DNA of 64,000 nt from a virus. Its lineage: Duplodnaviria; Caudoviricetes. The translations under genes were made by a program, and so were the position numbers. Below, piece by piece: positions 1,288 through 38,297 of the stretch. Numbering within the stretch: the first letter of the stretch is position 1; every line of letters starts with the position of its first letter. The notes under the pieces were generated by a model. It searched no databases and had not been told where the DNA came from. It saw only the letters and a list, made by a program, of their open reading frames with translations. The stretch lies in IMG/VR virus record IMGVR_UViG_3300017585_000267, positions 32,001 to 96,000 of that record; one strand, given 5' to 3'.

Positions 1288-2072
1288 TACAGTTCCCCTA
1301 TATATTGAAGGGCGACGTTCCGCAGGGACTCGTCGGTGGTATGCAAGGTAGGCTCCTCGACGCCCCTGATGGCAAAGGGACAGTCCTCGATGATTATCTG
1401 TATGGGAATGTGCCTATAGCTGTACACAAAGGCTTCCGAGCGGACATGAGGCATCACGATTTCGGCCTCCAGGGAAGCCTCGACCAGCCCCTTGCCGCAA
1501 TAGGCCTGTATGATGTCCTTCCTTTCCAGGAAGACCGAGGGAGCTATCCGCATCACGGGCCTCACGAACTGGTAGGTGAAGTCACCATTGCCGGGCTTCC
1601 ATGCCCTGTGGAGCCTCCAGGAACAGATCATGAGGGGCTTCATGTCCCTGTCCAGGAGTATCCCGGAGCTGCCGTAGTACAGGAAGTCCTTGCCTGGAAT
1701 CGCGACCTTCACCAGCCTGTCAAGGGGGAAGCCCTCGTTGAAGAGTGTCCTGAAGATTGGGTCCGCCGTCTTGTTGGTGACCTCATACCCATTGCAATAC
1801 AAGGAGACGACAAGAGTGTCCGTCTTCCTGCCATGAAGGTCAGGGTGAAGGATGAGCAGTCTGTTGTCGGACAACGCCGTTATGGCATTCCCCATGACAA
1901 ACAGCGGAACCTCGATGTCATCCCCGTCTATCGGGACTTCAAGGAACCTTCGGAACTGGGCGTTGCCGTCAACTATGTCGACAGGATTGGCCACTACGCC
2001 GGGATGCCTCCCATAGATGCTGCCATCTGTCCTCGCGAAGGCGTCCTTTATAACTACAGCGGTGTTCATCAT
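1287..2072 (-). CDS. conserved crAss-like hypothetical protein, last gene of the Ubl/E2/JAB/E1 cluster
   Basis: 261-aa ORF overlapping the E1 stop and abutting the ung start. Confidence 0.75.
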   Translation of the reverse strand: MMNTAVVIKDAFARTDGSIYGRHPGVVANPVDIVDGNAQFRRFLEVPIDGDDIEVPLFVMGNAITALSDNRLLILHPDLHGRKTDTLVVSLYCNGYEVTNKTADPIFRTLFNEGFPLDRLVKVAIPGKDFLYYGSSGILLDRDMKPLMICSWRLHRAWKPGNGDFTYQFVRPVMRIAPSVFLERKDIIQAYCGKGLVEASLEAEIVMPHVRSEAFVYSYRHIPIQIIIEDCPFAIRGVEEPTLHTTDESLRNVALQYIGEL

Positions 2073-3343
2073 GCGGTCGTCTTGAATATCATGTTGTGCG
2101 CGTCATACTCCGTGAAGAACGGGAAGTCATAGGGAATGGCCGGGGCGAGCTGGTTGGCAATGAAGTTGGTGAAGAGGTTGGTGATCACCGAGCCTATCAT
2201 GCAGGCCAGGTAGGTGGTCTGCTTCAGGGAGCACACGGTCTCGTCGGCCTCACCGTCTGAGAACAGGTAGTCCCTGTCATACCTCTCCATGCTGTAGTCG
2301 TCGTCACCGGCAATTGCGAACACCTGCAAGGTATCGATGCTCAGCCTTCCGTCTATATACAGGCACTTACGCCTTTCGTCAGGTGTCTTTCCCCGAAGGT
2401 GGTCCCTCCACTTGGCGAAGAACAGCTTCCTTGCGGACATGTTGTCGAAGCCGCAGATCATGATGTCGCTGGCCTCGTCAGTCTCCTGGAACTTTCGGTC
2501 TATCCCAAAGGCGTTGGTCATGTTGGTGTACTTCTTTATCATCTGCACCATGGCCGTCACCTTGGTCTTCCCCACGTCGTCCCTGCTGAACAGTTGCCCG
2601 GACATGTTGGAGGCTTCCACAATGTCGTCATCGTACAGGAACATGCCAGCGGGGGTCATCCTGGCAATCTGGAACACGGCGTTCGAGCCTATGCCCCCTA
2701 TGCCCGCCACTATGACCACGGACTTTCGGATGCTGTCATACCATTCGGCGCCTGAGAACCTCGACGTGGAGTCATCCAGGAGAAGGGTCGGGGAATTCGG
2801 GACTATCATGCCGGTGGAGTCGTAGGGTTCGCCCCTAGGCTGCTCGGCCCTCGACTCCTCCACGTGCTCGACCACCACGCTCAGTGGCGGCGTTACTGGG
2901 GAATCCTCTCCAAGATGCCTGTCATAGTCATCCCTTGGGGAATTCTCCACAATCCTGGTGACCCCCTCGGGAATCGGCGGTTCCTCTTCCGTCTCTCGGC
3001 CTTCCGTCTCAGCGAGGAGCTGGTCAACGCGTCTGACGATATCGTCCTCCAGGGCTTCGTCAGTCTCATGGGATTCCTCGGCAATGTTCTCCTGTTCCTC
3101 AGGGGGAACCATGGCCTGAGATTCATCGTTATCCACTGCCTGCTCAATCGCGACATATGTGGTATTTGGTCTATCCAGGGCCTCCCTTATGGCGTTCAGG
3201 TCAGTCGTTATCCTGAAAGGATATTCAGGTTCGTCCTGACGACGTTCCCCCTCGGGTTCGGCTGGGGTGAAGTCCATGGGATCCAAACCAGCCGAGGCGA
3301 GTATTTCATTCAGTTCTGTGTTGTCCATGTTCAATAGATCCAT
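2069..3343 (-). CDS. ThiF/E1-like adenylyltransferase with long acidic N-terminal extension
   Basis: SRF...VAGIGGIGS, YDDDIVEASNMSGQLF, DVGKTKV, CGFDNMSAR, YIDGR motifs; candidate catalytic Cys in ETVCSLKQT; start could be 3328. Confidence 0.9.
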   Translation of the reverse strand: MDLLNMDNTELNEILASAGLDPMDFTPAEPEGERRQDEPEYPFRITTDLNAIREALDRPNTTYVAIEQAVDNDESQAMVPPEEQENIAEESHETDEALEDDIVRRVDQLLAETEGRETEEEPPIPEGVTRIVENSPRDDYDRHLGEDSPVTPPLSVVVEHVEESRAEQPRGEPYDSTGMIVPNSPTLLLDDSTSRFSGAEWYDSIRKSVVIVAGIGGIGSNAVFQIARMTPAGMFLYDDDIVEASNMSGQLFSRDDVGKTKVTAMVQMIKKYTNMTNAFGIDRKFQETDEASDIMICGFDNMSARKLFFAKWRDHLRGKTPDERRKCLYIDGRLSIDTLQVFAIAGDDDYSMERYDRDYLFSDGEADETVCSLKQTTYLACMIGSVITNLFTNFIANQLAPAIPYDFPFFTEYDAHNMIFKTTA

Positions 3344-4506
3344 CTTTCAAGTTCATTGATGTACGCGGTGAGGTACGGGTTGTCATGGAGCGGATCCACG
3401 AAGGTCTTGAGCTCCTCCTGCATGGCCATGGCCTTCACCGACCAATAGGAGTCGTCGTCAAGCATCGGGTACATGTCACGGAAGGAATCGTCCTTGCCAT
3501 ACATGAGGCTGTACTCGACGGAGTAGTCCCTCCAGCTTGTGAAGGCATCCATGTCCACGCCCCCGAACTGCTTGTCATAGACGGGGACCATGTATTTGTC
3601 GACCCACTCCTTGAGGTTCGACTTGCCGCCGTGCATGATGAGGGAACAGGTGAGCATCCTGAGCACGAGCTCCCGTATGGACTCGTCCCCCACCATGTAG
3701 CTGGACCGCAAGTTAGCCACGTCGTTCTGGACGACGCCCTCAAGCTCCCTCTCGGAGAACAGTCCGGGCTCAGCCTTTTGGGGCTGCCAGGCATCGGAGA
3801 TTCCGGGAGACAACGTGACGGCAGAGGCCTTCTTCCTTTTCTCGATTTCCTCGAACCTCCTGTCCATGTCGTCGAAGGGATTGGCCACCGCAGGCTTCTC
3901 GATGTCGAGCATGAAGTACTCGACCTTGCTGCACACGTCTTCCTTCCTGACTTCCTTGCGGTCGTCGCCCGACTTGACTTCTCCCTCACCAAAGAACTGG
4001 TAGGTGCTCTCAAGGCAGGTCACGGTGATTTCCCTCTTGATCCTGACGTTCCTCGTTATGGCCGCGACGTAGTTTCCCGCATTGTCGACTATCAGGGAGA
4101 CGAAGTTGTTGGTGTCGTTGCCTTCAACTTGCAGCGTGTTGATGTCCTGGCCGCTGAAGAACGCACCGAGCCTGTGATGGGAATGTATCAGCCCGATCTC
4201 ACAGTCGAACAGTTCCATGTTTTGGGCCATGTATGCGGCCACGTCCTCGTTCATGTGGTATTCGGTCCATCCCGAAGTCCCGAGGTCCATGGGATAGAAG
4301 TCCTCGCACCTGATTACGAGATCGCCTCCCTCGAAAGAGCCCGTGTGGTGATAGAACAGCACCCCGGACCACTCGGTGCTGGGGAACTTCCTCTGCAAGT
4401 ACCTTATCTTGGATTCCACCGGCTCGGGAATCACCATCCTATACGTGGAGGACATTTTGACTGGCGCAGGGGAGTTCCCCGCCTGTAGTTGCTTGGTTTC
4501 TTTCAT
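3331..4506 (-). CDS. JAB/MPN+ (JAMM) metallopeptidase
   Basis: EWSG...IHSHHRLGAFFSGQD fits E...HxH-x7-S-x2-D; start placed at MKETKQ. Confidence 0.9.
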   Translation of the reverse strand: MKETKQLQAGNSPAPVKMSSTYRMVIPEPVESKIRYLQRKFPSTEWSGVLFYHHTGSFEGGDLVIRCEDFYPMDLGTSGWTEYHMNEDVAAYMAQNMELFDCEIGLIHSHHRLGAFFSGQDINTLQVEGNDTNNFVSLIVDNAGNYVAAITRNVRIKREITVTCLESTYQFFGEGEVKSGDDRKEVRKEDVCSKVEYFMLDIEKPAVANPFDDMDRRFEEIEKRKKASAVTLSPGISDAWQPQKAEPGLFSERELEGVVQNDVANLRSSYMVGDESIRELVLRMLTCSLIMHGGKSNLKEWVDKYMVPVYDKQFGGVDMDAFTSWRDYSVEYSLMYGKDDSFRDMYPMLDDDSYWSVKAMAMQEELKTFVDPLHDNPYLTAYINELERWIY

Positions 4507-5641
4507 TTTTGAATCTATAGTTAACCGTACGAAGTATCCTGTTGAGCAGGGGCATGGCGAACAGATGGTGCAGCAGCACGGTTGGAGCCTCCCTGCTCGA
4601 CCCGTCGTCATAGATGGAGAGGTTCACGTCCCGCCCCTTGAAAGTAAGCACATAGGCACCCTCATATTCACTGGGGATGCAGGTAGAGAAGCCCCGTGAA
4701 TAGAACCTCCTGTCCCGCACGATGGCCTTCACCAGTATCCTCAGATTGAAGCAATACCTGGCTGCGGTCTTACAGCCATCCACGAGACGATTGTTCACAT
4801 AATCTATGAAGCAATTCGAGATGTCCATCATGAAGTCATAGTACTGCATCCCTACGGAGAACGAGTTGTTGCAATAGTTGAACTTGAGATGCCCGTTGGT
4901 AAGGTAGTACCTGATGAAGTCCTGAAGCGCAGCCTTCCCGAACTTTTCGTTGAAGTGCCCTATCAGGGAATTCGAGAACAGGGAGTCGTCATACTCGTTT
5001 TCTATGAGGTATCCCTTGTTGCCGATCTCCTCGAGCCTCCTGTAGGGGACCCCTGTAAGGGACTCTACTGTCACGTACATGGAGAGCTCCTGGCAGAACA
5101 GCATCCACTCCGTCTCGTCGAACTCATTCTTGAGGGAGTTGATGGTCCCGACTATGGGACCCCTCCCGAGGCACGGGCTGTCGAAACGTGAGAAGTCCTG
5201 CTTGTTGATTCCCCTGAGGTGGCTATGGGAGTAGTCGCTGAGGAACTGCGTCATGGAATACCTGGCCCTGTTGAGGTAGAAGCCGTGGCTGCTGGGAGGG
5301 ATCTTCCCGTCAAGGCCCACCCTGACCAGCGCATAGAGGTCGTCGATGACAACGGATCTGTCGTTCTCGTTGGTCACGGTGACATGCGGCCAGTAGACAT
5401 AGATGGAGCAGTACAGCCTGGCGGCGCCTTCTATCACCTTCCCGATCCTATGGTCCGAGATGTCAATGGTAGCGTCGGGAAGCTGTCCCGCATCCCATGC
5501 ACAGCCTATATAGCGTTCCATCCGGGAGCTTTGCAGGTCGACGAACTGTTCCCCGAAGAAGTCCTGGAATACCCTGTATACCGCAGCTACCTTGAAGAAA
5601 ACCCTGTCATGGAATTGTTCTTTTGTCATTAGCATAGGCAA
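4439..5641 (-). CDS. putative prokaryotic E2-like (ubiquitin-conjugating fold) protein
   Basis: YSHSHL...FDSPCLGRGPI resembles the E2 HPN...CL active-site spacing; lies between the Ubl and JAB genes. Confidence 0.55.
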   Translation of the reverse strand: MPMLMTKEQFHDRVFFKVAAVYRVFQDFFGEQFVDLQSSRMERYIGCAWDAGQLPDATIDISDHRIGKVIEGAARLYCSIYVYWPHVTVTNENDRSVVIDDLYALVRVGLDGKIPPSSHGFYLNRARYSMTQFLSDYSHSHLRGINKQDFSRFDSPCLGRGPIVGTINSLKNEFDETEWMLFCQELSMYVTVESLTGVPYRRLEEIGNKGYLIENEYDDSLFSNSLIGHFNEKFGKAALQDFIRYYLTNGHLKFNYCNNSFSVGMQYYDFMMDISNCFIDYVNNRLVDGCKTAARYCFNLRILVKAIVRDRRFYSRGFSTCIPSEYEGAYVLTFKGRDVNLSIYDDGSSREAPTVLLHHLFAMPLLNRILRTVNYRFKNERNQATTGGELPCASQNVLHV

Positions 5642-16965: not shown

Positions 16966-17046
16966 AAAGCGTCGACCAGTTTGTGGAAAACAAACAGGAC
17001 GTTTAAAATTTTTAAAGTTAAACAGTATTCACCGGCCGACGCCTTG

Positions 17047-17115
17047 AAGGGACGGCAGGGGTCGAACCTGCGTCTCCCGAAAACCGGGGCTCTCTCCCAA
17101 TTGAGCTACGTCCCT
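17047..17115 (-). ncRNA. tRNA-like RNA with truncated anticodon arm
   Basis: Perfect acceptor AGGGACG/CGTCCCT, D arm GCTC..GAGC, T arm GCAGG-TTCGACC-CCTGC; anticodon arm only CCCGGTTTTCGGG. Confidence 0.7.
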
Positions 17116-17122
17116 TGGCAGA

Positions 17123-17404
17123 CTATGCCTGCACTCGAACGATGTCCTCCTCACCGGGCCTCTCAAGCGTTACGAGCTGAGCCTTCGAGAGGTCAACCTT
17201 GTCCCCCACCCCAAGCTCGGAATCCCTGGAGAGCGGGATATAGGTCTGTCCGCCCGCCTTCATTATGAAGCATACGCTGTTCCCATACTGGGAAGCCACC
17301 ACTTCCGCGCTCTTCACCGAAGAGATCTCCTCGGCGTCAAATGACCGCAATGACTTCACGCTCCAGTTTCCGGCGTAGCTCTTGAGGGTCGAAAAGATGT
17401 TCAT
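17123..17404 (-). CDS. 93-aa conserved small protein, paralog 1 of 3
   Basis: MNIFS.LK.YA.W...VKSAEVVASQYG.SVCF.MKAGG..YIP shared with 21192 and 21747. Confidence 0.85.
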   Translation of the reverse strand: MNIFSTLKSYAGNWSVKSLRSFDAEEISSVKSAEVVASQYGNSVCFIMKAGGQTYIPLSRDSELGVGDKVDLSKAQLVTLERPGEEDIVRVQA

Positions 17405-17853
17405 AAGTTTCATCGCCAATGCCCTTTGGACTTGTTTTGGTACCTGGCTCACCTGTTGTTGTTGTTAAATGTAGTACTGAGGAATACTTCCGGCTGGCGC
17501 CGTACCCCAAATATCGGGGAAGTGTAATGGGCAGGTGTCGCTCTATGCGGCTCCCATAAATCCACGTTTCACTGGAATACAGTTCCCCGGGCCTTCCACA
17601 TGACGGCTGTATGGAACATAAAACGGCGGCCATGCCTCAAATGGAGTACTTCTTCGACAATGCCGACGTCCGTAAAGCCAATGACTGAATGGGCGCATTT
17701 TTCCTAAAAGGGAAGCACAAAAATGCCGGATGCGGGCCTGGGGTTCCCCATGAATGCCAGGGTACAGGCAGTAAAGTCGGGAAGAAATGGGTCGGGGGAA
17801 GGGATTATGGGGAAGAGCCGGGGATGAAGGGGATGGAAGACACTGTGAAACAA

Positions 17854-17887
17854 TTTGCAAGTTTAAAAAAAAGTGTTATATTTGCGG
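17854..17887 (+). promoter_or_regulatory. Bacteroidota sigmaA promoter firing into noncoding DNA
   Basis: TTTG (-33) and TATATTTG (-7, 17877-17884) followed by CGG. Confidence 0.7.
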
Positions 17888-17889
17888 TT

Positions 17890-18400
17890 GCCTTAGACTA
17901 CTAGTGAAAGTCTACACACCCCCCGAAGGTATGCGACACGACAAGTAAGGGGAGAAGGTGGCTGGTAAGGGAGGCAGATGTGACTGATACAGAATACGTT
18001 ACAGAAACAAGCTGCAAACATATCCCTGAGATATTGCTGCCAAGGGCAAAAAGGTTCTTTGATATAAGCATGGTCCGTTGCTGATGCACTCTAGAGACGC
18101 TGAGGGAAAAACGGGATCGAGATAAAGACCATTAGGTGTAATAACCCGCCCATGTGAAGTTCAAGGAATAAGCTGAAACCCAATGGGTTCAGAAAGGGAG
18201 ACGGTTCGTCCCCCTGGGTATACAGGTATCCTCTCTTCAGAGAGGTTCTTAAAAAACAATCTGAATCAACAAGCAACAGTTTCAACATTCTCCCCCGGTG
18301 ATAACACCTACCCAAGAAGAAGAGAGGATGAGCCGGGGGGCCTATTGTCATAACCCTGGTGAAACGTCCTTCAAGGTAGGTTTCAATCTCGAGACTAACT
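17890..18400 (+). ncRNA. putative ncRNA 1 (3' end uncertain)
   Basis: Downstream of a consensus promoter, no credible ORF; shares GGCTGGTA and AAACATATCCCTG with ncRNA 2. Confidence 0.35.
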
Positions 18401-18446
18401 CACTGATACTCAATAAATTATAACTACTATTAGTGATAGTTGAAAG

Positions 18447-18622
18447 TTAATATGGTACTTTCGGCTTAACGAATGTGCCATATTGCCATTTACTAATGTG
18501 GCATATTCCTTAAGGTGAATACCCCATGTAGGTTGTTTAAGCATTTTTCAATACCCCGACTCACGAATGTGCCATACTCGTCACGTCGACTTTGCCACTT
18601 AGGAGTTCACGAATATGGCACT
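18447..18622. repeat. iteron-like array, consensus GAATRTGSCAY, 23-bp spacing
   Basis: Copies start at 18449, 18472, 18495, 18518, 18566, 18589 and 18612. Confidence 0.75.
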
Positions 18623-18725
18623 TAAGTCGATGACGCCTAATTTTGGCCAAAATCATCCGATTTTTATCGACATAAAGGATTCACTTAGGAATTCCCCCTC
18701 CCCTGGATGGATTCCATGCCGCATA

Positions 18726-19338
18726 TACCTATTATATATAGGAGTCCCCGGGCAGGGACATCATACGGCTGGGGCGGGAGCCCAGGGTGGTGGCGAATAA
18801 TCCCCCCACAGGGTTTCGTCCTCCATGTCGCCCATACCTATTATATATATAGGCATGAAATTCCATCTACTCCTATTATATATATAGGAGTCCCGGTTAC
18901 GGCCAAACCCAAGCTACACCTATTATATATATAGGAGTCACAGGCCGGCCACTCCTATTATATATAGGTACAGGTCCCAGGTTATACCTATAATATATAT
19001 AGGTGCGGTGTCGTGGCTATACCTATAATATATATAGGAGTGTCGGCATCCATGTCCCGGTCCATATACTTATATTATATATATAGGAGTGGGACTGCCA
19101 CTACACCTATTATATATGGGGCCACAGCCCTGCCCACTCTTCATGGTCATGGAGTCCAGGCCATACCTATTATATATAGGGATTCCTGGCCAGGCGATAC
19201 ACCTATTATATATAGGAGTGCCGGGCTTCCCATACCTATAATATATATATAGGTATCCAGGCCATGGTCGAACCCGGACTACACCTATTATATATATAGG
19301 TGTGTCAGGTCGGCCATACCTATTATATATATAGGCAT
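18726..19338. repeat. array of 14 imperfect palindromes CCTAT(T/A)ATATA(TA)nGG with unique GC-rich spacers
   Basis: Cores at 18728, 18837, 18872, 18919, 18954, 18987, 19022, ~19069, 19106, 19166, 19202, 19235, 19284, 19319. Confidence 0.9.
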
Positions 19339-19379
19339 GGGACCATGCCGTCGCCTGTAGTGGAAAATCAAAAAAAGAC

Positions 19380-19413
19380 TTGCAGGATTGAAGAATCCTT
19401 CCTATATTTGCGG
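19380..19413 (+). promoter_or_regulatory. Bacteroidota sigmaA promoter firing into noncoding DNA
   Basis: TTGC...TATATTTG (19403-19410) followed by CGG, same as 17877. Confidence 0.7.
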
Positions 19414-19414
19414 C

Positions 19415-19750
19415 GACTCTGGGAGGAGCTGCATCCTCAGCCGTGCCGAGCCACCCCCTTACGGAAAGGGTCTAACAGGGCTGGTACAGACATCGGGTCG
19501 AGAATGGGAGCCGTCCCGATACGGAAACATATCCCTGCCTCGTAGCCAACTGCCCCGATACCAGAGAAACCGCAGGTTGCCATGACCCCAGCTCGACACC
19601 ATTGTGCAGCTTATGGAAAAATGGTGTCCACGAACAAACGTGGAGGCAATGCCAGAACCCCAGGCGGGAAACGCAACCGAGCAATGGCGATGAGACTTTG
19701 ACGAGGAGCCAGGGTCTCCAGGCAGGTTTCAGGCGATTTATTTTTTTTTC
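19415..19750 (+). ncRNA. putative ncRNA 2
   Basis: Promoter-led; hairpins ATCGGG/CCCGAT, GACACCAT/ATGGTGTC, CCACG/CGTGG; ends in a T run at ~19737-19749. Confidence 0.4.
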
Positions 19751-20664
19751 GACCTGAGCGTGCCAGGGGGCTCCTTTGCGAAAGAGAGTTCTATTCACTG
19801 ACGTTCATAGAAACTCTTGCCTTTCTTGATTCAGGAGCCCTTCCCCCTCACTCCAGCTCCACACTCCTGGGTACGCAGTTCATAAGTACACAGTTCAGTC
19901 AATCAGCCAATCAGTTGGTTGGTTCAGTTGAAGGAACCCAGGCTGTGGGGAATCAGGGTTCACACAACGGCTCTCCTGGGCAGGTGTGGCTGTGTCGACT
20001 CCCCGGGGGGAGGACCCCCCGGCCCCCCCCGGAAGCGAGTGTGGGTGAATAGACATCTTGTCCGCTACTTGGGTACTGCTGAGGTACTGGTTCGCTTGGA
20101 TGCACCACTTGAAGGGACCAAGGCTGTATGGTGGCGGGGTTCGCCCACTCCTTCCTCCCTGAGGACCCAAGGCTGAGGGCAGTCGCTTCCTGAGTGGACT
20201 CCTGGCTAAGGGTACTATGTTCACTTGGCCCTCTTGGGATGGTCCAGTGGACACCAACCAAGTGGCCACCCCTTGGAAGGGATGTCGCCTTAAGGAACCT
20301 CCTTTAAAGGGACTTCCGGTCATAAGGAAGTGATCCCATGAGGGCTTGGTTGGTTCTGTCCCTCCCCCGGTTAAGGCATATTCCCAGGTGCCACGCCCCT
20401 TGAGGGGACATCCTTAAGGAACTCCCTTGAATGAATCCTGAAGGGAGCCCTGTGAATGAAACCCCCAGGGAACCTCTTGAATGGACTTCACTTGAAGCAG
20501 GCCGCTTCATTCACTCCTTGAGGCCACTATGGGGACTGTCCTTTGGGAGCCTGCATTATTCCCCACCCCTGCCCCATGCCCCCTCCCTGTGAAGCAGTCT
20601 TTGCCGTCACGACCCTTGCAAGTCTGGCCGATGTTCACTAACTTTGTACAAAACCTAATGGCAC

Positions 20665-21096
20665 ATGCGAACTAAGGAAAGATTCTGCTTCATGTACCCA
20701 GACGGGATGTCGAGGCTCCTCAGGGGACGCCTGCTCGACCCGGCAGCCAAGGTCCTCCTGGGGCTCACGGGATACCTCGGGTACAACACCAACGTGGTGA
20801 AGCTCGACCCCATCAGGAGGACCTCGCTGGCTAACTCATGCAGGATACCCAGGACCGCTCTTGACGACGTGCTGGCCGCCCTTGTGGGGGAGGGGGTGCT
20901 GGGGATGCTGGATGGGGACACCTACGTCATGGACAAGTCCCTCTTCTGGAAGGGGGACCTCAACTCAAGGGACGCTCTGAAGATGAAGGACCTCGGGAGG
21001 ACCCTTGCAAGCTCACTCGAAGGAGCCTCCGTCCCGGTGGACCTTCCTGACACGGGAGGCTACTGGCAGCCGGATTCCTCGTTTGAACTCCGGTGA
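20665..21096 (+). CDS. RepL-like replication/maintenance winged-helix protein
   Basis: YNTNVV...L..LV.EGVL...YVM...FWKGD pattern; promoter TAACTTTG at 20639-20646. Confidence 0.7.
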   Translation: MRTKERFCFMYPDGMSRLLRGRLLDPAAKVLLGLTGYLGYNTNVVKLDPIRRTSLANSCRIPRTALDDVLAALVGEGVLGMLDGDTYVMDKSLFWKGDLNSRDALKMKDLGRTLASSLEGASVPVDLPDTGGYWQPDSSFELR

Positions 21097-21191
21097 AAAA
21101 AAATAAGGGAGCGACCCCATAAGGGGCCACTCCCACTGAAAGAAAAAAAACAAGGGACGCAGCCCGCATTGGACTGCATCCCCTGTACTTT

Positions 21192-21473
21192 TTAGGCCTC
21201 GACCCTCACGATGTCATCGCTGCCATCCCTGTGGAGGGTAATGAGCCTCGCCTTGGTGAGGTCCACGGAATCCCCTACGCCCAGGCTGCTCTGGTTGGAA
21301 AGCGGAATGTAGGTCTGCCCACCCGCCTTCATGAAGAAGCACACGGAGCTGCCGTACTGCGAGGCGACCACCTCCGCCGACTTGACGGCATTGATTTCCT
21401 CAGCCTCGAATGCACGGGATCCAGTCACGTTCCAGTTGCCAGCGTAGGTCCGCAAAGAAGAAAAGATGTTCAT
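21192..21473 (-). CDS. 93-aa conserved small protein, paralog 2 of 3
   Basis: High identity to 17123 and 21747; terminator at 21144-21186. Confidence 0.85.
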   Translation of the reverse strand: MNIFSSLRTYAGNWNVTGSRAFEAEEINAVKSAEVVASQYGSSVCFFMKAGGQTYIPLSNQSSLGVGDSVDLTKARLITLHRDGSDDIVRVEA

Positions 21474-21746: not shown

Positions 21747-22028
21747 TTATGCCTCGACCCTCAGAATGTCCGCCTCCCCGTCCTTGGAGAGCACGACCAG
21801 CTTGGCCTTTGTGAGGTCTATGGACTGACCCACGGCTGCGGAGGCATCCCTGCTCATCGGTATGAACTTGGAGCCTCCCGCCTTCATCATGAAGCAGCAG
21901 GACGTCCCGTATTGGGACGCCACCACCTCGGCGGACTTCACTGCGTCTATCTCCTCTGCTGAGAAGCCCCTCGTTTCCTTTACGTTCCAGGATGCGGCAT
22001 AGGTCTTGAGTGAATTGAAGATGTTCAT
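21747..22028 (-). CDS. 93-aa conserved small protein, paralog 3 of 3
   Basis: High identity to the other two; terminator at 21692-21729. Confidence 0.85.
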   Translation of the reverse strand: MNIFNSLKTYAASWNVKETRGFSAEEIDAVKSAEVVASQYGTSCCFMMKAGGSKFIPMSRDASAAVGQSIDLTKAKLVVLSKDGEADILRVEA

Positions 22029-26676: not shown

Positions 26677-29088
26677 ATGGGATATGCAAACAAGGGCTTT
26701 CCTGCACAGCAGCTTCCCTTCAGGGAGAAGACCAAGAAGTGGAGGAAGGCCAACGTGGACTTCGCGGACTCGAGGAGCCTGCTGCACTACAACCTCACGA
26801 GGAAGTCCGTGTTCAACATGAAGATAAACTACGACCTCCTCAACGGCAAGCTGCACATGGAGGACCTGAAGCTGATGCTGAACCCCTACGGCACCGCCGC
26901 TTCCTACATACCCGACAACATACAGCACTATCCCGTGATGAACTCGAAGCTGCAAGTCCTCAGGGGCGAGGAGTCGAAGAGGGTGTTCGACTTCAGGGTG
27001 GTGGTGACCAACCCCAACGCCATCTCCGAGATTGAGGAGAACAAGAAGGAGGAGATGCTCGTGAGGCTCCGGCAGATGGTCGCGGACGACTCCGCTTCGG
27101 AGGATGAGTTCAACCGGAACCTCGAGAAGCTCGGGGACTACTTCACGTACGAATGGCAGGACATGAGGGAGGTGCGGGCGAACCAGCTCCTCAACCACTA
27201 CATCAGGGAGCTCGAGATCCCACAGCTGTTCAACGCCGGCTTCCTCGACGCCATGTGCGTCGGCGAGGAGGTCTACCAGTGCGACATAGTGGGGGGCGAG
27301 CCAGTGGTCGAGAGGCTCGACCCGATGAAGGTGAGGATACTGAGGTCGGGGTACTCGAACAGGATTGAGGACGCTGACATAATAATCATAGAGGACTACT
27401 GGTCGCCTGGACGGATAATAGACACATATTGGGACCAGCTCTCGAAGGAGGATCTCAGGAGCATCGAGGAGTCTCCCAATTTCCTTGGGGGTTCCTACAC
27501 CGACGACATGGGGAGCGTCGACCCGAGGTATGGCCTCGTGCACGGTGCCGTCCTTGGGGACACGGACGCGGAGCTCGACCCCCTGAGCCTCTTTGACGAT
27601 GACGTGGACTCCTCGCTTCTGCCATACGACCTTGAGGGGAACGTTCGCGTCCTGAAGGTCTACTGGAAGTCCCGCAGGAAGATAAAGAAGGTCAAGTCCT
27701 ACGACCCGGTGTCGGGGGAGGAGCAGTTCAACTTCTACCCCGAGACCTATGTGGCCGACGCAGACAAGGGCGAGGAGGAGGAGTCCTTCTGGATAAACGA
27801 GGCCTGGGAGGGCATCAAGATCGGCACCGACATCTACATCAGCATGAGGCCGAGGCCCGTACAGTACAACAGGCTCTCGAACCCCTCGCGCTGCCACTTC
27901 GGGATAGTGGGCTCCATCTACAACATAAACGGCGACAAGCCCTTCTCCCTCGTGGACATGATGAAGCCCTACGCCTACCTGTACGACGTGATACACGACA
28001 GGCTCAACAAGGTCCTCGCGAAGAACAAGGGGAAGATCCTGAGGCTGGACTTCGCGAAGGTTCCCAAGGGATGGGACGTCGACAAGTGGCTGTACTTCGT
28101 TGAGTCCAGCGGCATAGCCGTGGAGAACTCCTTCAAGGAGGGCGAGTATGGTGCGGCCACGGGCAAGATAGCCGGGGCCATGAACACGGCCTCCTCTGGG
28201 GTGATAGACGCGAGCCTGGGGACCGAGATAGTGCAGTACTGCAACCTCCTGGACTTCATAACCAACAAGATGGGCGACATGGCTGGCATCTCGAGGCAGA
28301 GGGAGGGGCAGATCTCGAACAGGGAGACGGTTGGCGGCGTCGAGAGGGCCACCTTGCAGAGCTCCCACATCACGGAATACCTGTTCTTCACCCATGAGTC
28401 CGTGAAGAAGAGGGTCCTCGAGTGCCTCCTCGAGACGGCCAAGATCGCCATGAAGGGCAAGGGCAAGCGCAAGTTCGAGTACATCACCACGGACGGGGCG
28501 GTGAAGCAGGCCGAGATTGAGGGGGACGAGTTCGCGGAGTGCGACTACGGCCTCGTGGTCGACAACGGCACCGCCACCCAGGAGCTCAACCAGAAGCTTG
28601 ACGTCCTCACGCAGGCCGCCGTCCAGAACCAGTATGACCTCTCGACCATCATCAAGCTGTACAACACCACCTCCGTCGCCGAGAGGGAGAGGATTCTCGA
28701 GAACGACGAGAAGAGGCGCAGGGAGGAGTCCCAGCAGCAGCAGCAGCAGCAGCTCCAGTTGCAGCAGCAGCAGCTACAGCAGCAGGCGCAGCTCGAGCAG
28801 GAGAGGCTTGACAGGGAGTACAAGATGCATCAGGAGAAGCTGGAGACCCAGGTGCTCGTGGCGAAGATCAACGCCCAGGCCGAGGCCGACAGGCTCGCGA
28901 TGATGAACATGGACAACCAGGTGACGTCTGACCAGCAGTACCAGCTCGAGAAAGACAAGCTGGCGCAGGACGTCAAGGAGTTCGACGCCAAGCTCAGGCA
29001 GGACGAGGCGTCCCTGGAGCTCAAGAAGAGGCAGCATGAGGACGACATGAGGATCAAGGAGAGGCAGCTGCGGCAGCAGGGCAAGTAG
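26677..29088 (+). CDS. portal protein
   Basis: 803 aa, crAss-type (P.QQLP...K...W, IQHYP, GISRQREGQI..RETVGGVER), Gln-rich coiled tail; promoter TATCTTTG at 26647-26654. Confidence 0.9.
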   Translation: MGYANKGFPAQQLPFREKTKKWRKANVDFADSRSLLHYNLTRKSVFNMKINYDLLNGKLHMEDLKLMLNPYGTAASYIPDNIQHYPVMNSKLQVLRGEESKRVFDFRVVVTNPNAISEIEENKKEEMLVRLRQMVADDSASEDEFNRNLEKLGDYFTYEWQDMREVRANQLLNHYIRELEIPQLFNAGFLDAMCVGEEVYQCDIVGGEPVVERLDPMKVRILRSGYSNRIEDADIIIIEDYWSPGRIIDTYWDQLSKEDLRSIEESPNFLGGSYTDDMGSVDPRYGLVHGAVLGDTDAELDPLSLFDDDVDSSLLPYDLEGNVRVLKVYWKSRRKIKKVKSYDPVSGEEQFNFYPETYVADADKGEEEESFWINEAWEGIKIGTDIYISMRPRPVQYNRLSNPSRCHFGIVGSIYNINGDKPFSLVDMMKPYAYLYDVIHDRLNKVLAKNKGKILRLDFAKVPKGWDVDKWLYFVESSGIAVENSFKEGEYGAATGKIAGAMNTASSGVIDASLGTEIVQYCNLLDFITNKMGDMAGISRQREGQISNRETVGGVERATLQSSHITEYLFFTHESVKKRVLECLLETAKIAMKGKGKRKFEYITTDGAVKQAEIEGDEFAECDYGLVVDNGTATQELNQKLDVLTQAAVQNQYDLSTIIKLYNTTSVAERERILENDEKRRREESQQQQQQQLQLQQQQLQQQAQLEQERLDREYKMHQEKLETQVLVAKINAQAEADRLAMMNMDNQVTSDQQYQLEKDKLAQDVKEFDAKLRQDEASLELKKRQHEDDMRIKERQLRQQGK

Positions 29089-29106
29089 CCTTTTGGGATT
29101 ACGGTT

Positions 29107-29135
29107 AAGGGGGCTCATAGAGTCCCCTTTCTTTT
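29107..29135 (+). terminator. terminator after portal
   Basis: GGGGGCTC-ATA-GAGTCCCC followed by TTTCTTTT. Confidence 0.7.
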
Positions 29136-29162
29136 GTCCCCACCGGTCCTTTCCAGCAGTCC

Positions 29163-29777
29163 CTAGTCGATTATCTTGACGTACCTGTTCATGGTGTCCC
29201 TTATGTAGGGGTTCCCTTCCTTCACGTCGACCCTTACGACCGTGCGCTTCCTTTGGAACCACCTTGCCATGAAGCACTTCCTCGGCTTCCCGATTGGTTC
29301 CTTTGAGTTGGACACCAATATGTACTTCTGGCTGGTGAACTCGGGCTCGGCGGCTATCACGTTAGGGTACTCAAGGTGCAGCCTCATCCTGTACCACTGG
29401 TCCCCATACAGTGTGTCAAGCTGGAAGTGCCTGTCCCTGAAGATGGTGTCCCTCACCGTGATGGTGTCCGTCCTCCTGGCTACCGACGCGAGATACTGTA
29501 GGGACTGGATCTCCTTGTCCTTTATCCCCAGCTCTTTCCGTATGGAATCCATCTTGTGCATGATGGAGTCCTTGAAGTACTCGAGCTGCCCCACCTTCAG
29601 GGACAGCGCCCTGTTCGAAAGCTCCATGCCGTTGTACTGGTCGTCCATGGCCTCGAGGTTCTCCACCGCCCTTCCGTACCTTTCCCCCAGCTTCTTTGAG
29701 TGGCCTATGGAAAGGCACAGTCCCATGGTGAGGAGGACTATCGCCGCCACGGCTCCTATTATCAGCTTCTTCTTCAT
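29163..29777 (-). CDS. putative spanin-like lysis protein
   Basis: N-terminal TM, coiled coil and DTI..RDTIF repeats; next to lysis candidates. Confidence 0.5.
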   Translation of the reverse strand: MKKKLIIGAVAAIVLLTMGLCLSIGHSKKLGERYGRAVENLEAMDDQYNGMELSNRALSLKVGQLEYFKDSIMHKMDSIRKELGIKDKEIQSLQYLASVARRTDTITVRDTIFRDRHFQLDTLYGDQWYRMRLHLEYPNVIAAEPEFTSQKYILVSNSKEPIGKPRKCFMARWFQRKRTVVRVDVKEGNPYIRDTMNRYVKIID

Positions 29778-29921
29778 CTTGTCATGTTTTTCGCAAAGGT
29801 AGCGATTCCTGCGGGTCGTTGTCCTTAGGGATGCCTTTAGGTTTGTGCAGCCCTCGAGTTATCGGCCAAACACTTGGGGAGAATCAGTTATCTTTGCATG
29901 GAAATATAAAGTCTGGCAAGA

Positions 29922-30287
29922 ATGCTCACTGAAGTCGCCATAGCCCTTATAGGCATACTATCAAGCGTGATATCCAGCTTCGTCACGTTCCATGTGACCA
30001 AGCGGAAGTACAACGCCGAAGTGGATTCCAACCTTATCCAGAACATGCAGGACTCGTTGCAGTTCTACGATGAACTGACCAAATCAAACACGCAGAAGCT
30101 CAGGGAGATCGAGGAGGAGAACCGACTGCTCAGGCAGCAGGTGAGCGAGTTGCAGACACAGGTGGTGAAGCTCATGGGCAATATATGCTACGACGCCACT
30201 TGCAGGGCCAGGAAACTTCAGGAAGAGGTCGACAAAAAGGACAAGGGACATGAACCTTCTGTTGAAGCGCAGGGCAAGAAAGCCTAA
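29922..30287 (+). CDS. holin-like TM plus coiled-coil protein
   Basis: Single N-terminal TM and coiled coil; overlaps the next gene. Confidence 0.5.
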   Translation: MLTEVAIALIGILSSVISSFVTFHVTKRKYNAEVDSNLIQNMQDSLQFYDELTKSNTQKLREIEEENRLLRQQVSELQTQVVKLMGNICYDATCRARKLQEEVDKKDKGHEPSVEAQGKKA

Positions 30288-30681
30288 GTACACCATAGGC
30301 AGCCTCTACATCGACGGCAGCTATTTCTGTGACACCCTTGAGGACGCGGACAGGGGGCTCAGGCACTCGATGTCCGATGCGGAGATAAAGTCCGTCAAGG
30401 TAGCCGGGGAGACCGCAATCCCGACGGGGAAGTACAAGGTGCTCTGGACCTACTCCCCAAGGTTCAAGAAGATGATGCCCCTCGTAAACGGGGTGCCTGG
30501 GTTCTCGGGAATAAGGATACACTCCGGGAATACCAATAGTGATACGGACGGGTGCATCCTGTTGGGGCAGAACAAGGTAGTGGGCAAGGTAGTGAACTCG
30601 GTGGCCACCATAGACAAGTTCTATCCCATCATAGAGAAGGCCTCGAAGAAGGGTGAGTCCATCTACCTGGAAATAAAGTGA
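30250..30681 (+). CDS. DUF5675-family putative endolysin/peptidase
   Basis: YTIGSLY, CDTLED, TAIPTG, GIRIHSGN..DTDGCILLG motifs. Confidence 0.75.
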   Translation: MNLLLKRRARKPKYTIGSLYIDGSYFCDTLEDADRGLRHSMSDAEIKSVKVAGETAIPTGKYKVLWTYSPRFKKMMPLVNGVPGFSGIRIHSGNTNSDTDGCILLGQNKVVGKVVNSVATIDKFYPIIEKASKKGESIYLEIK

Positions 30682-35021: not shown

Positions 35022-38000
35022 ATGGAGAAGTTCAACAAGTGCCAGACCCCGCTTGAGGAGCTGAGGCTGGATACGTATCCCCAGGAGGTCCAGGAGCAGT
35101 TCTGGGACTTCCTCGACACGGTTCCCTTCATAAAGTGGATGGTGAGCCCTGACAGGCCGCTCATATCGGAGTGTCCAAGGGACGATGAGGGCAAGGTGAC
35201 GATAGACGTGACTAGGCCCCCGATCCTTGAGAACACCAAGTTCTTCAGGCAGGCGGCCATTGCGTTTGCCAACAACGGCAAGAGGTACTCAACCCTGAGG
35301 CCCAACGCCAATCCCAACAGCGACTTTGGCAGGTGGCTTCGTGAGGAGCGCCGGAGGGGGTGGGAGGGGCTAATAGACCCGTCCACCGGCATGTGGGTCA
35401 CCGGTGACATGTATTGGCTTCTCAACTACTGTCCCATACACCAGGTGGTGAAGGACAGCAAGGGGATGGCGCTTCGCGTAGTGAACTTCCCCAAGTTCTG
35501 GGACGGCCAGTTCCTGATGACCCACTACATGCACCAGGCGAGGCTTCACGGCCACCATGCCGCCGAACTGGCCAGCCGAGGGAAGGGCAAGGCGCACCCC
35601 TACAGCCAGGTCGTCTATACTCCTGATGGTATGAGGAGGTGGGGCGACATACAGGTCGGGGACCTCCTGTTCGGGGACGACGGCAAGCCGACGAGGGTGA
35701 CCATGGTTCCCTTTGACGAAGAGGAGGACATCTATACTGTCACCTTGTCTGACGGCAGATCCCTCAGTTGCACTTCAGGACACCTGTTCAGGGTAAGGGA
35801 CTGCCTGGAACACTCTTCGGAATGTGTGATTGACCTGTGGGAGATGATGCACTCAGGCTATACCTACGAGAGTCATGGCGGAACTACCGCCTATCGCTAC
35901 TCCTTGCCAAACAACGGTGCCGTGGAGTTCAGTCCACAATCAGTCCCCATAGACCCCTATTCTTTGGGGCTTCTCTTGGGGGGCGGTCTTTTCTCCATGA
36001 GTTCCACGAATACCGTGGAGTTCACTTCGGAGGAGGGGGACATTGACATATATCAGAAAAGCATACCCTACAGGATTGGTAGTGGGAAGACCCCTTGCAG
36101 CCATACTATGGAGATTCCTGGAATCAAGGGCTTCCTAAAGAAGCATGGCATGTATAGTGAGTTCCCCCAAAGGAGATTCATCCCAAGGGAGTACATGTTC
36201 AACTCCTCGGATGTACGGATGGAGGTGCTCAGGGGACTTATGGATACTTGCGGTATAGTGGACAATGAGGGTGCGCCTACATTTACTACCGCCTCATTGA
36301 GATTGGCGGATGATATAAGGTGGCTCTGCCATAGCCTTGGCTACAGCTCCCTTTTGCCTACAGGGCACCTCGAGTACGAGGGTGGCCCGCTCAGGGCCGG
36401 CTACACCGTTGCCATTCTCACCAATGACGCCATATTTCGGCTGCCTCGGAAACTGAAGGAGCTTGCAGGCTTTCCTTCTGTACATGGCCAGGACGGGAAG
36501 GACTGGACGAGCATAGTCGACATAAGGTACAGCCACAGGGAGAAGGCCAAGTGCGTCATAGTGAACAATGACAGCCACTGCTACCTCATAGGGGACTTCG
36601 TGGTCACCCACAACACCTCCCTCGGGGGAGGCATGCTCAGCCGCAGGTGCATACTGGGGGAATCCCATGACAACAGGAGCGACGTCCAGTGTTGGGTCAC
36701 GGCGACAGACCGGACGAAGTTGATGGGTGAGAACCAAATCCTCTCGATCTTCACCGACAACCTCGACTTCTGCGCGAAGAATACCCAGTTCGCAGGCCAC
36801 AGGCTAACTTCGTCAAGGCAGGAGATGCTCTGGAAGATGGGCTACAAGAAGCCAGGGAGCGACGTGGAGCATGGGTCGAAGAACTCCGTCCAGGGAATCA
36901 TAACAGGCGTGAACCAAGACAAGCTCAATGGCTCCAGGGGAGTCCTGTACCTCATTGAGGAGGCCGGCATCTTCAGGGACCTCCTGAGCATGTATACCCT
37001 CATACGCCCCTCTGTCGAGCAAGGCGATGACGTGTTCGGAGAGATAATCCTTTACGGAACCGCCGGTGACGAGCAGTCCGACTTCCAGGACTTCCAGGAG
37101 ATCATCTACAAGCCCAAGGGCTACAATGTCGAGTCTCTTCCCAATGTCTTTGACAAGGAGGGGCAGGGCAGCCAGGAGTGCGCGATATTCTACCCGGCCT
37201 ACCTGAACAGGGACGACGGCTGCATGGATGCCGACGGCAATTCCGACGTAACCAAGGCCCTGCTCGGGTTGCTGGCGGACAGGTACAGGGTGAAGTACAA
37301 CTCCTCCGACATAACCGCGATTGCCAAGCGCATCTCCCAGTACCCCATAACCCCCCAGGAGGCCATTCTCAGGTCCCATCATTCCATATTCCCGATAACG
37401 GAGCTCATCGAAAGGCTGAACCAGATAGACAACAACCCTTCCGAGTACGACGACGTGTACATCGGGGAGCTCCTGGAGGGAACCAGCGGCAAGATGGAGT
37501 TCATACCGACCAATGACATCCCGATAAGGGACTTCCCGACGAAGGACAACAAGGTGAAGGGCGCATTGGAGATCTTCGAGATGCCCCAGAAGGACGGGCA
37601 GGGCGACGTGTTCTCGGAGAGGTACCTGGCAAGCTGCGACCCTTACGACGATGACTCGTCTAACACAATGTCCTTGGGGTCCATCTTCGTCCTCGATTCC
37701 TGGACCGACAGGCTGGTGGCCGAGTACACCGGAAGGCCCGAATATGCCGACGATTTCTTTGAGATCGCCCGCAAGCTGTGCTTCTTCTACAATTGCCAGA
37801 TGATGTACGAGAACAACAAGAAGGGCCTCTTTGCGTACTTCAGCAAGAAGAACTGCGTCTACAAGCTGGCGGACACCCCTACGTACCTCAGGGACAAGCA
37901 GCTGATAAAGGAGATTGGGTACGGCAACAAGCTGAAGGGGATAGCGATGTACGGGAGTGACAAGCCAGGCACCTTGAGGAACTATGGCTATACCCTGATT

Positions 38001-38297
38001 AAGGAATGGTTGATACAGAAGGTATCCAAGGTAGAGAAGGATGACCAGGGCAATGACATCGAGACCTCCATCCCAAACCTGTACTTCATCAGGAACAGGG
38101 CCTTGCTCAGGGAGCTCATCCTCTGGAACCCCAACATCAACGTGGACCGCATCATGTCCCTCATGCAGCTCATGCTCTATCGCCAGGAAAAGGTGATACT
38201 CTATCAGGGTGACCTCAGCAAGCCCTCAACCAGGGACAGCTCACAGGACCTCGACAACGACGAGTTCTTCAAGAGGAACTATCCGAAGGGGTTCTGA
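35022..38297 (+). CDS. terL: terminase large subunit containing an intein
   Basis: Walker A SRGKGK|TS, Walker B LIEEAG, GTAG coupling motif, nuclease CDPYD. Confidence 0.93.
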   Translation: MEKFNKCQTPLEELRLDTYPQEVQEQFWDFLDTVPFIKWMVSPDRPLISECPRDDEGKVTIDVTRPPILENTKFFRQAAIAFANNGKRYSTLRPNANPNSDFGRWLREERRRGWEGLIDPSTGMWVTGDMYWLLNYCPIHQVVKDSKGMALRVVNFPKFWDGQFLMTHYMHQARLHGHHAAELASRGKGKAHPYSQVVYTPDGMRRWGDIQVGDLLFGDDGKPTRVTMVPFDEEEDIYTVTLSDGRSLSCTSGHLFRVRDCLEHSSECVIDLWEMMHSGYTYESHGGTTAYRYSLPNNGAVEFSPQSVPIDPYSLGLLLGGGLFSMSSTNTVEFTSEEGDIDIYQKSIPYRIGSGKTPCSHTMEIPGIKGFLKKHGMYSEFPQRRFIPREYMFNSSDVRMEVLRGLMDTCGIVDNEGAPTFTTASLRLADDIRWLCHSLGYSSLLPTGHLEYEGGPLRAGYTVAILTNDAIFRLPRKLKELAGFPSVHGQDGKDWTSIVDIRYSHREKAKCVIVNNDSHCYLIGDFVVTHNTSLGGGMLSRRCILGESHDNRSDVQCWVTATDRTKLMGENQILSIFTDNLDFCAKNTQFAGHRLTSSRQEMLWKMGYKKPGSDVEHGSKNSVQGIITGVNQDKLNGSRGVLYLIEEAGIFRDLLSMYTLIRPSVEQGDDVFGEIILYGTAGDEQSDFQDFQEIIYKPKGYNVESLPNVFDKEGQGSQECAIFYPAYLNRDDGCMDADGNSDVTKALLGLLADRYRVKYNSSDITAIAKRISQYPITPQEAILRSHHSIFPITELIERLNQIDNNPSEYDDVYIGELLEGTSGKMEFIPTNDIPIRDFPTKDNKVKGALEIFEMPQKDGQGDVFSERYLASCDPYDDDSSNTMSLGSIFVLDSWTDRLVAEYTGRPEYADDFFEIARKLCFFYNCQMMYENNKKGLFAYFSKKNCVYKLADTPTYLRDKQLIKEIGYGNKLKGIAMYGSDKPGTLRNYGYTLIKEWLIQKVSKVEKDDQGNDIETSIPNLYFIRNRALLRELILWNPNINVDRIMSLMQLMLYRQEKVILYQGDLSKPSTRDSSQDLDNDEFFKRNYPKGF
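35592..36614 (+). mobile_element. intein (341 aa, Ala1, class-3-like) with degenerate LAGLIDADG endonuclease
   Basis: Begins AHPYSQVVYTPDG, ends VVTHN|T, inserted within Walker A. Confidence 0.9.

Follow-up and report, generated by a model that had tools for sequence, protein, structure and literature searches.

The 64,000-nt window analysed here (positions 32001-96000 of the 105,238-bp IMG/VR virus record IMGVR_UViG_3300017585_000267; coordinates below are those of the window unless stated otherwise) belongs to a crAss-like phage and carries, within a non-coding island of its early/replication arm, an array of 14 directional TATA units (18726-19338, plus strand) whose motif recurs in the chromosomes of some Bacteroidales. 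We propose, with a probability of roughly 0.4, that this array is a phased DNA platform of host-type sites which recruits a host architectural factor beside a RepL-type origin. The crAss-like phages are among the most abundant gut viruses, and we know of none in which a replication origin or a cis-acting control region has been located; the island would offer a concrete candidate origin (its AT-rich 60-mer and four palindromes together with the RepL-like gene and the 14-unit array), while the motif link suggests a host factor used by both phage and chromosome and may help to narrow down the host of this 54% GC phage.

All 14 units are found on the same strand and conform to AYACC-TATWATATATA(TA)-GGWRY, with AT-only cores of 10-16 nt that start with TATT or TATAA and continue as (TA)n:

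18730-18740 (+), AT-only core 1
18839-18851 (+), AT-only core 2
18874-18886 (+), AT-only core 3
18921-18933 (+), AT-only core 4
18956-18966 (+), AT-only core 5
18989-19001 (+), AT-only core 6
19024-19036 (+), AT-only core 7
19070-19085 (+), AT-only core 8
19108-19117 (+), AT-only core 9
19168-19178 (+), AT-only core 10
19204-19214 (+), AT-only core 11
19237-19251 (+), AT-only core 12
19286-19298 (+), AT-only core 13
19321-19333 (+), AT-only core 14

The cores are preceded by CC in 13 of the 14 units (usually as AYACC) and followed by GG in all of them (most commonly as GGAGT), both dinucleotides being invariant or nearly so (information 1.6-2.0 bits). The pattern CCTATWATATATA, with at most one mismatch, is matched 13 times in the window, always on the plus strand and always within 18728-19331 (0.02 matches expected; 0/100 shuffles reach 13), and the unit at 19070-19085 completes the set as a 14th that is degenerate on its left flank (ATAC-TTATATTATATATATA-GG). 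Throughout the whole 105,238-bp genome CCTATWATATATAKR has 12 exact matches, every one of them in the array (reversed-pattern control: 0), and nowhere else does the phage genome carry the TATA motif. The units measure 110, 35, 47, 34, 34, 35, 47.5, 35, 60.5, 36, 35, 48 and 35 bp from centre to centre, and the start-to-start periods given for them by a first-pass annotation of the sequence (109, 35, 47, 35, 33, 35, 47, 37, 60, 36, 33, 49 and 35, with the degenerate unit included) are exact. The spacers, taken between the 5-nt flanks, are 12 nt long in seven of the 13 cases and otherwise 15, 23, 24, 24, 40 and 88 nt. As that annotation had also described, they are GC-rich (GC 0.58-0.83 in 12/13, 0.33 in the remaining one) and non-repeating, their mutual similarity being that of shuffled sequences (36/300 shuffles reach the observed value); Tandem Repeats Finder, when applied to the array, reports just 2.3 copies with a 35-bp period. 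Two of its descriptions hold in part: the periods are approximately multiples of 12 bp, although the lengths of 15, 40 and 88 agree badly with this period, itself chosen post hoc, and the longer palindromes are perfect through five flank positions in three units of the 14 (ACTCC..GGAGT, ATACC..GGTAT and ACACC..GGTGT) and imperfect in the rest.

The retention of the cores, the free sequence of the linkers and the exact 12-nt length of seven of them are what selection acting on the sites and their spacing would be expected to leave, which argues for a function of the array. As DNA, single units would form hairpins of -0.4 to -5.5 kcal/mol, and as RNA somewhat stronger ones (-3.7 to -10.5 kcal/mol); covariation of the outer flanks beyond that given by composition was found neither in the phage (p 0.17-1.0) nor in 45 other sites (p 0.07-0.70), and the dominant right flank (GGAGT) is not complementary to the dominant left one (AYACC). 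On the basis of these weak hairpins, the lack of flank covariation, the non-complementary flanks and a directional motif that shows no transcription orientation bias in a bacterial chromosome (see below), we favour a protein that recognizes the duplex over selection for a hairpin or cruciform, so that the cruciform formation initially suggested for the palindromes appears weakly founded at best. A transcribed array may be compatible with these points, as promoter boxes of host type are directed into it.

The array is part of a plus-strand island within the minus-strand early/replication arm, and this island is located immediately upstream of the genes of the replication module (RNA ligase, helicases and primase, with PolA further on). 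The island and its parts, in order, are:

17453-20664 (no strand), non-coding island of 3.2 kb, without any open reading frame (ORF) of coding-like codon usage
17854-17884 (+), promoter-like site P1 (TTTGCA, 17 nt, TATATTTG)
18396-18455 (no strand), AT-rich 60-mer of 25% GC, candidate DNA-unwinding element by its duplex stability
18467-18625 (no strand), four private palindromes of ~19 bp (ACGAATGTGCCATACTCGT type), candidate iterons or operators from the repeat listing
18638-18645 (+), -7-like box TAATTTTG, a match to TAnnTTTG located 90 bp upstream of unit 1 and pointing into the array
19380-19410 (+), promoter-like site P2 (CTTGCA, 19 nt, TATATTTG), directly right of the last array unit
20410-20483 (no strand), 25-bp tandem repeat (CCCTTGAATGAA type, about 2.4 copies), upstream of the RepL-like gene by roughly 200 bp
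20616-20646 (+), promoter-like site P3 (CTTGCA, 17 nt, TAACTTTG), ending 18 nt upstream of the RepL-like ORF
20665-21096 (+), RepL-like winged-helix gene encoding 143 aa (or 134 aa if started at the second Met), codon score 0.31
21107-21186 (-), two terminator-like hairpins with T runs, at the right edge of the island

The AT-rich 60-mer, with a 40-bp duplex stability of -41.8 kcal/mol, falls beyond the 99.9th percentile of the genome (the least-stable 0.1%) and is among its seven most AT-rich 60-mers. Next to it, ACGAATRTGSCA is matched six times on both strands (0.69 expected, 0/100 shuffles), with all matches inside 18469-18620; clustered repeats beside an AT-rich element are the hallmark of iteron-type origins, and the repeats are here candidates for initiator binding. 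The promoter-like sites were recognized through TTTG...TAnnTTTG (-7 = TAnnTTTG), which we take to be the Bacteroidota promoter consensus, and would presumably act as promoters. P1 and P2 have in common an identical 11-mer, TATATTTGCGG (17877-17887 and 19403-19413, plus strand), each copy of which stands at the start of a long non-coding stretch, one to either side of the array; these stretches (candidate non-coding RNAs) show no significant mutual similarity (score 26 vs a shuffle maximum of 27) and both fold no better than shuffles (z -0.65 each). The hairpins at 21107-21186 would stop leftward transcription ahead of the island. The codon scores of the island ORFs range from -0.48 to +0.06, as compared to 0.36 +/- 0.13 for long genes (on which the score was trained), and recoding of the island (TAG=Q or TGA=W) yielded no convincing ORF; the RepL-like gene is its only coding-like gene and runs on the strand opposite to its neighbours. 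Taken together, the parts of the island resemble an origin/control module.

The 143-aa product of this gene has, in a single-sequence AlphaFold2 model, the element order of a winged helix (at low confidence, pLDDT 50), and in the ESM Atlas it falls with RepL clusters (score 0.96, 194 shared features, the ten best hits belonging to one family), the predicted structures of the protein and RepL giving template-modelling (TM) scores of 0.63/0.69, which the Atlas counts as sufficient for a name. An exhaustive HMMER search returned seven hits, four of them small proteins with sub-threshold HTH_36, RepL and Phage_rep_O matches; a word-indexed search retrieved only the protein itself, encoded identically on two contigs, and tblastn against plasmids and phages gave no match. 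Relatives of the protein are encoded on contigs of 6-7 kb. A homolog of 26% identity is present in related crAss-like contigs, where it is likewise encoded on the strand opposite to its neighbours, behind a 640-bp gap and with small repeats directly upstream. We consider that 'RepL-like' is probably the best available label for this protein.

Lambda-type and P1 RepL-type phage origins, which combine palindromic iterons, an AT-rich region and a winged-helix initiator, are approached by the island in several respects: four palindromes of ~19 bp adjoin the AT-rich 60-mer, a RepL-like gene (the putative initiator) lies within 2 kb, and the promoter-like sites could activate an origin by transcription. 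We know of no such origin that possesses a 14-unit array, and they differ further in that the TATA motif is present also in chromosomes where no RepL-like homolog was found. Replication by P1 RepL requires an AT-rich element with GC-rich DNA ahead of it but does not require the IHF or DnaA sites (PMC9948254), and the steep AT/GC alternation of the island is reminiscent of the P1 AT2 described there. In P1, on the other hand, the origin is situated inside repL. The TATA units are here distinct from the candidate iterons.

The occurrence of the motif outside the phage is what links the array to bacterial chromosomes. A scan of IMG/VR for a 17-mer of the motif found 32 loci with a single match each, which is the chance level. 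A two-copy scan (motif copies 15-45 nt apart) of metagenomes returned 66 loci, mostly AT microsatellites, among which a few carry phage-like flanks (outside the search pattern) in ordinary chromosomal gene contexts. These flanks (AYA before CC and GGAG[T/C] after the core) recur in loci L189, L227, L224, L228 and L169; L189 comprises five units of ACACCTATTATATATAGGAGC at 35-38 bp, and L179, L169, L181 and L209 are similar. When one genome per species was scanned in the same way, ten of the 14 loci recovered were from Bacteroidales metagenome-assembled genomes (MAGs). In five Bacteroidales MAGs, chosen for having motif pairs, the 13-mer was counted 25, 6, 14, 17 and 25 times on many contigs (reversed control 0-1), and the left part of the motif (TATACCTATTATATATA) is the best-conserved portion in 3/3 MAGs examined. 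In one of them (G005), 17 of 23 motif sites are intergenic (by crude ORF calls) and mostly 2-23 bp from a gene end, with unrelated housekeeping neighbours (murE, a penicillin-binding protein gene, recA, lpxB, rpoZ and a ribonucleotide reductase (RNR) gene among others). Between co-directional genes of G005 the motif is oriented along transcription seven times and opposite to it six times, and this absence of orientation bias argues for a reading at the DNA level. An alignment search for the RepL-like protein had no match in the five motif-bearing MAGs, a weak negative given that the MAGs are incomplete. A search of a paper library for strings of the motif turned up only chance strings in two unrelated papers and no description of the chromosomal motif. 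We argue that the chromosomal motif points to an undescribed extragenic repeat family in Bacteroidales.

A close parallel to such a family is offered by the repetitive extragenic palindromic (REP) sequences of enterobacteria and the bacterial interspersed mosaic elements (BIMEs) built from them: both are short imperfect palindromes, over-represented, mostly extragenic near gene 3' ends, lineage-restricted and sometimes arranged in tandem clusters. The combination of over-representation, extragenic position and imperfect palindromy typical of REP is seen in the MAGs and not in the phage; moreover, the sequences are unrelated, and the units of the array all point in the same direction where REP alternate. 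The E. coli REP/BIME elements bind gyrase and IHF, which we mention by analogy only, and we know of no REP arrays in phage genomes. A connection through REP-associated tyrosine transposases (RAYTs) was discarded: the Y1 transposase family (PF01797) is present in three of the five MAGs, but its genes are flanked by other, GC-rich palindromes. As an observation on the family itself, some Bacteroidales MAGs (G001, G004 and G005; loci L245-L302) contain it as the lineage-restricted extragenic motif TATACC-TATTATATATA-(GGTATA/GGAGT). The sole tandem pair of G005 (L249, G005:C6) lies about 39-85 bp upstream of an RNR large-subunit gene (1298-2458, plus strand).

The phased protein-binding platform (linked to an origin or titrating a host protein) that was among the first suggestions for this array would fit both the parts of the non-coding island and the recurrence of the motif in Bacteroidales. 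In the reading that we prefer, the array would be a cis-acting DNA element of the origin/control island, in which GC-rich linkers hold 14 directional motifs of ~23 bp at distances of about 35 bp, or 35 bp plus multiples of about 12 bp. Since the motif is over-represented and mostly extragenic in Bacteroidales in which no RepL-like homolog was found, the reader of the array would most likely be host-encoded, for example a nucleoid-associated or topology-modifying protein. Side-by-side loading of this factor might create a nucleoprotein or supercoiling platform by the likely origin core (i.e. the AT-rich 60-mer together with the four palindromic repeats) and so help the RepL-like initiator to open DNA in a 54% GC genome. 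The more likely targets of the RepL-like protein itself would be the four private palindromes or the 25-bp repeats, and not the TATA units. We infer that a protein binds the array, that this protein is a host factor and that the island serves as an origin.

Several results weigh against this proposal. The 143-aa protein has no Pfam or PHROG hit, Foldseek (PDB) with its model retrieved only generic winged helices (none at E <= 0.001), and the RepL-like call would accordingly stand on language-model and predicted-structure searches plus sub-threshold hidden Markov model hits in relatives. No DnaA-box cluster was found (13 matches vs 11.2 expected), and the GC skew changes direction not at the array but at about 26 kb, together with the switch in gene orientation. 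The variable core length (10-16 nt) would shift the flanks relative to one another, a difficulty if the reader is a rigid dimer; neither the 35-bp nor the 12-bp step is a multiple of the 10.5-bp helical repeat, and AT islands of 11-16 bp are too short as classical unwinding elements. Among 80 further genomes sampled evenly from the order, the motif counts were 0-5, as in controls; the five MAGs having been preselected, the enrichment is restricted to certain lineages, and the host link holds for a few lineages only. Furthermore, the array was not found in relatives of the phage (80 portal loci, 30 loci of the 93-aa protein family described below, 12 RepL-like loci and five whole records), and in 1.66 Mb of crAss-like loci the 13-mer had two hits vs two control hits, the copy in the closest relative being potentially there by chance.

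In this closest relative (L145, with a portal of 72% identity) 93-aa copy 2, an island (1.86 kb), copy 3 and the helicase follow one another as in the phage. Its island harbors a gene on the opposite strand that differs from that of the phage, as well as a single 13-mer copy, which is suggestive by its position and proves nothing. Scans for k-mer clusters in the relatives' loci revealed unrelated small repeats only (L057, L089, L058, L140 and tRNA T-arms); a DNA similarity search of phages with 17000-21000 gave no match, no relatives of the RNA ligase were found in IMG/VR, and the long intergenic regions of the crAss-like phage phi14:2 hold no comparable array. One of the small repeats, in a related crAss-like contig (L140:5681-5821), is a 15-bp unit (TAAGATTTTAAGGT type) that is repeated ten times in tandem and lies directly upstream of the contig's 93-aa gene.

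Among the alternatives, the one that survives best, though we regard it as unlikely, acts at the level of RNA: a rightward transcript (from the 18638 box or through read-through from P1) would expose 14 AU-rich hairpins and either titrate a host RNase or RNA-binding protein, as a decoy or sponge, or act as a stable regulatory RNA. The units without exception share the strand of the island's promoter-like sites, the four palindromes are placed as an operator of the 18638 box would be, the variable (TA)n would be harmless in a hairpin loop, the RNA hairpins exceed the DNA ones in stability, and the chromosomal copies are mostly located just past stop codons, where REP-like RNA hairpins act. A precedent exists in phi14:2, whose long early-gene intergenic regions are reported (bioRxiv 10.1101/2020.03.07.982082) to be transcribed above most genes. 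Against these points stand the outer stem without covariation (the invariant CCTAT/ATAGG pairs being uninformative), the directional motif that disregards transcription in G005, a fixed 12-nt linker without obvious RNA rationale, and the shuffle-level folding of the two flanking candidate RNAs. An Rfam scan (E <= 1) yielded, apart from a tRNA-like element and chance hits, a chance-level miRNA match spanning two units of the array (28.3 bits vs a gathering score of 73).

We consider it doubtful that the array is selfish or neutral, that is, a minisatellite or the product of repeated insertions of a tiny mobile palindrome which also spreads in Bacteroidales and is tolerated in a non-coding island. 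Young tandem arrays with near-identical spacers do occur in chromosomes (L189, L227, L232 and L179), length polymorphism of (TA)n is typical of slippage, and the phage's relatives lack the array. BrickBuilt of Porphyromonas gingivalis (PMC4596501) likewise consists of tandem short repeats in intergenic Bacteroidales DNA and combines a MITE (miniature inverted-repeat transposable element) with a minisatellite, a layout to which the Porphyromonas MAG arrays, bracketed by repeats resembling IS5 terminal inverted repeats (TIRs), come close; its unit is a different 23-mer (AGAYCATARTATCCTCTCRTRTG in the same source), set between leader and tail segments with IS5-like TIRs, and the difference in unit excludes identity. 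In these MAG loci (L227, L228 and L169) the motif forms a 36-42-bp minisatellite between the repeated IS5-TIR-like sequences, whereas no leader, tail or terminal inverted repeats were seen at the phage array in the repeat listing. Neutral decay would moreover hit cores and linkers alike, while 12 of the 14 cores are exact and the linkers are shuffle-like, and independent insertions would not yield seven exact 12-nt linkers; the RAYT genes of the MAGs, flanked as they are by other palindromes, likewise speak against a mobile origin.

Similarly doubtful is a DNA sponge derived from the host's dispersed motif, which would soak up a Bacteroidales DNA-binding protein, such as a topology or nucleoid factor, as the phage genome amplifies and thereby rewire the host, feed the origin, or both; if true, this decoy would consist of DNA, and not of protein or RNA. 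A still more improbable version is a pure decoy without any origin role, in which the 14 sites on each phage genome would draw a host protein off its roughly 20-50 sites in the chromosome, with reprogramming of the host as the result. Such a decoy would be in line with a motif common to chromosomal sites in MAGs where no RepL-like homolog was found and with the size of the array (14 sites vs 2-8 in any chromosomal cluster seen), and its unique linkers would protect a long array from deletion; on the opposite side, the chromosomal sites show no coherent regulon, their enrichment has the narrow lineage range noted above, and no candidate protein emerged. NrdR, the one specific candidate tested, fails. 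Its boxes, tandem TATA-rich palindromes upstream of RNR genes, are resembled by the palindromes (ACAC..TATATATA..GTGT) that occur in pairs with linkers kept in length and not in sequence, and by the G005 pair situated 39-85 bp upstream of an RNR gene. NrdR boxes, however, are 16 bp long with a critical C4 and G13 8 nt apart and linkers of 15-16 or 26-27 bp (PMC13584703), whereas the C-G gap is here 10-16 nt and the linkers are mostly 12 nt. Furthermore, NrdR (TIGR00244) was found in none of the five motif-bearing (and incomplete) MAGs, while the control was found in 9/14 genomes.

Very unlikely, in our view, is a partition centromere in the manner of F sopC or the Epstein-Barr virus (EBV) family of repeats, serving a carrier state, or a recognition site for packaging. 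F sopC is built from 12 palindrome-bearing units of 43 bp in tandem, and it shares with the EBV oriP family of repeats the architecture of a dozen or more tandem units that are each one palindromic protein site; unlike the array, the units of both are near-identical throughout and are served by a dedicated ParB-like or EBNA1 protein. Persistence without lysogeny, as reported for crAss-like phages (PMC8375218), would suit a partition function. Pfam scans of 45 + 26 phage proteins detected no partition operon family (ParA, ParB or ParR) and no integrase family, and the terminase and portal genes lie 7-16 kb from the array, which tells against the packaging role that had also been envisaged. The CRISPR-like label of the first-pass annotation, with its guide array processed into small RNAs, is effectively refuted by the anatomy, as the repeat-spacer look (unique spacers of uniform length) is superficial: the repeats are AT-only hairpins whose core plus flanks spans about 21-26 bp and varies in TA steps and flanks (vs a fixed length of about 23-47 bp in CRISPR), the spacers are unique but mostly 12 nt (7/13; the others 15, 23-24, 40 and 88 nt, vs about 26-72 bp), single units also occur at gene ends in bacterial chromosomes, and, as that annotation itself had noted of cas genes, no Cas family was found among 61 proteins (PHROGs) or 45 + 26 proteins (Pfam), in scans not dedicated to cas genes or run with PADLOC.

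The phage genome as such is 100% complete according to CheckV, without end repeats. Its major capsid protein shares 70-73% identity with the crAss001 and cr85_1 counterparts, and portal, terminase and capsid match crAss-type PHROGs; the idea of haloarchaeal TATA boxes was dropped in view of this affiliation and a median protein pI (isoelectric point) of 6.4. The left arm encodes the replication genes on the minus strand, which in the window include a glycosylase of the uracil-DNA glycosylase superfamily, a primase, DnaB-like and superfamily 2 helicases, a Sak4-like protein and an RNA ligase, with PolA, NrdD, an NrdG-like protein and ThyX further left. Two of three paralogous genes bracket the island:

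17123-17401 (-), 93-aa paralog, left bracket of the island
21192-21473 (-), 93-aa paralog, right bracket of the island
21747-22028 (-), 93-aa paralog, third copy

The three products are 66-73% mutually identical and belong to no Pfam family. The triplet is also present in related crAss-like contigs (L128, L129, L130 and L145), and in L145 as well as in the present phage a variable island separates copy 2 from copy 3. Between the left paralog and a terminator lies the tRNA-like element (17047-17115, minus strand), which scores 45.9 bits against the Rfam tRNA model, is not called by ARAGORN and has 3 nt in place of the 7-nt anticodon loop. The NrdD of the phage (1085 aa, genome positions 27393-30650, minus strand) matches an intein-splicing domain over residues 456-760, though at 30.6 bits (E 3.5e-7) the match stays under the curated Pfam cut-off of 35.8, and the terminase large subunit is unusually long (1091 aa, window 35022-38297). 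Moreover, the replication arm contains adjacent genes for a ThiF-family (E1-like) protein and a prokaryotic JAB-domain protein (window 2069-3343 and 3331-4611, minus strand; the JAB match of 24.4 bits being just under the cut-off of 25), and their neighbourhood suggests a pair involved in ubiquitin-like conjugation or deconjugation.

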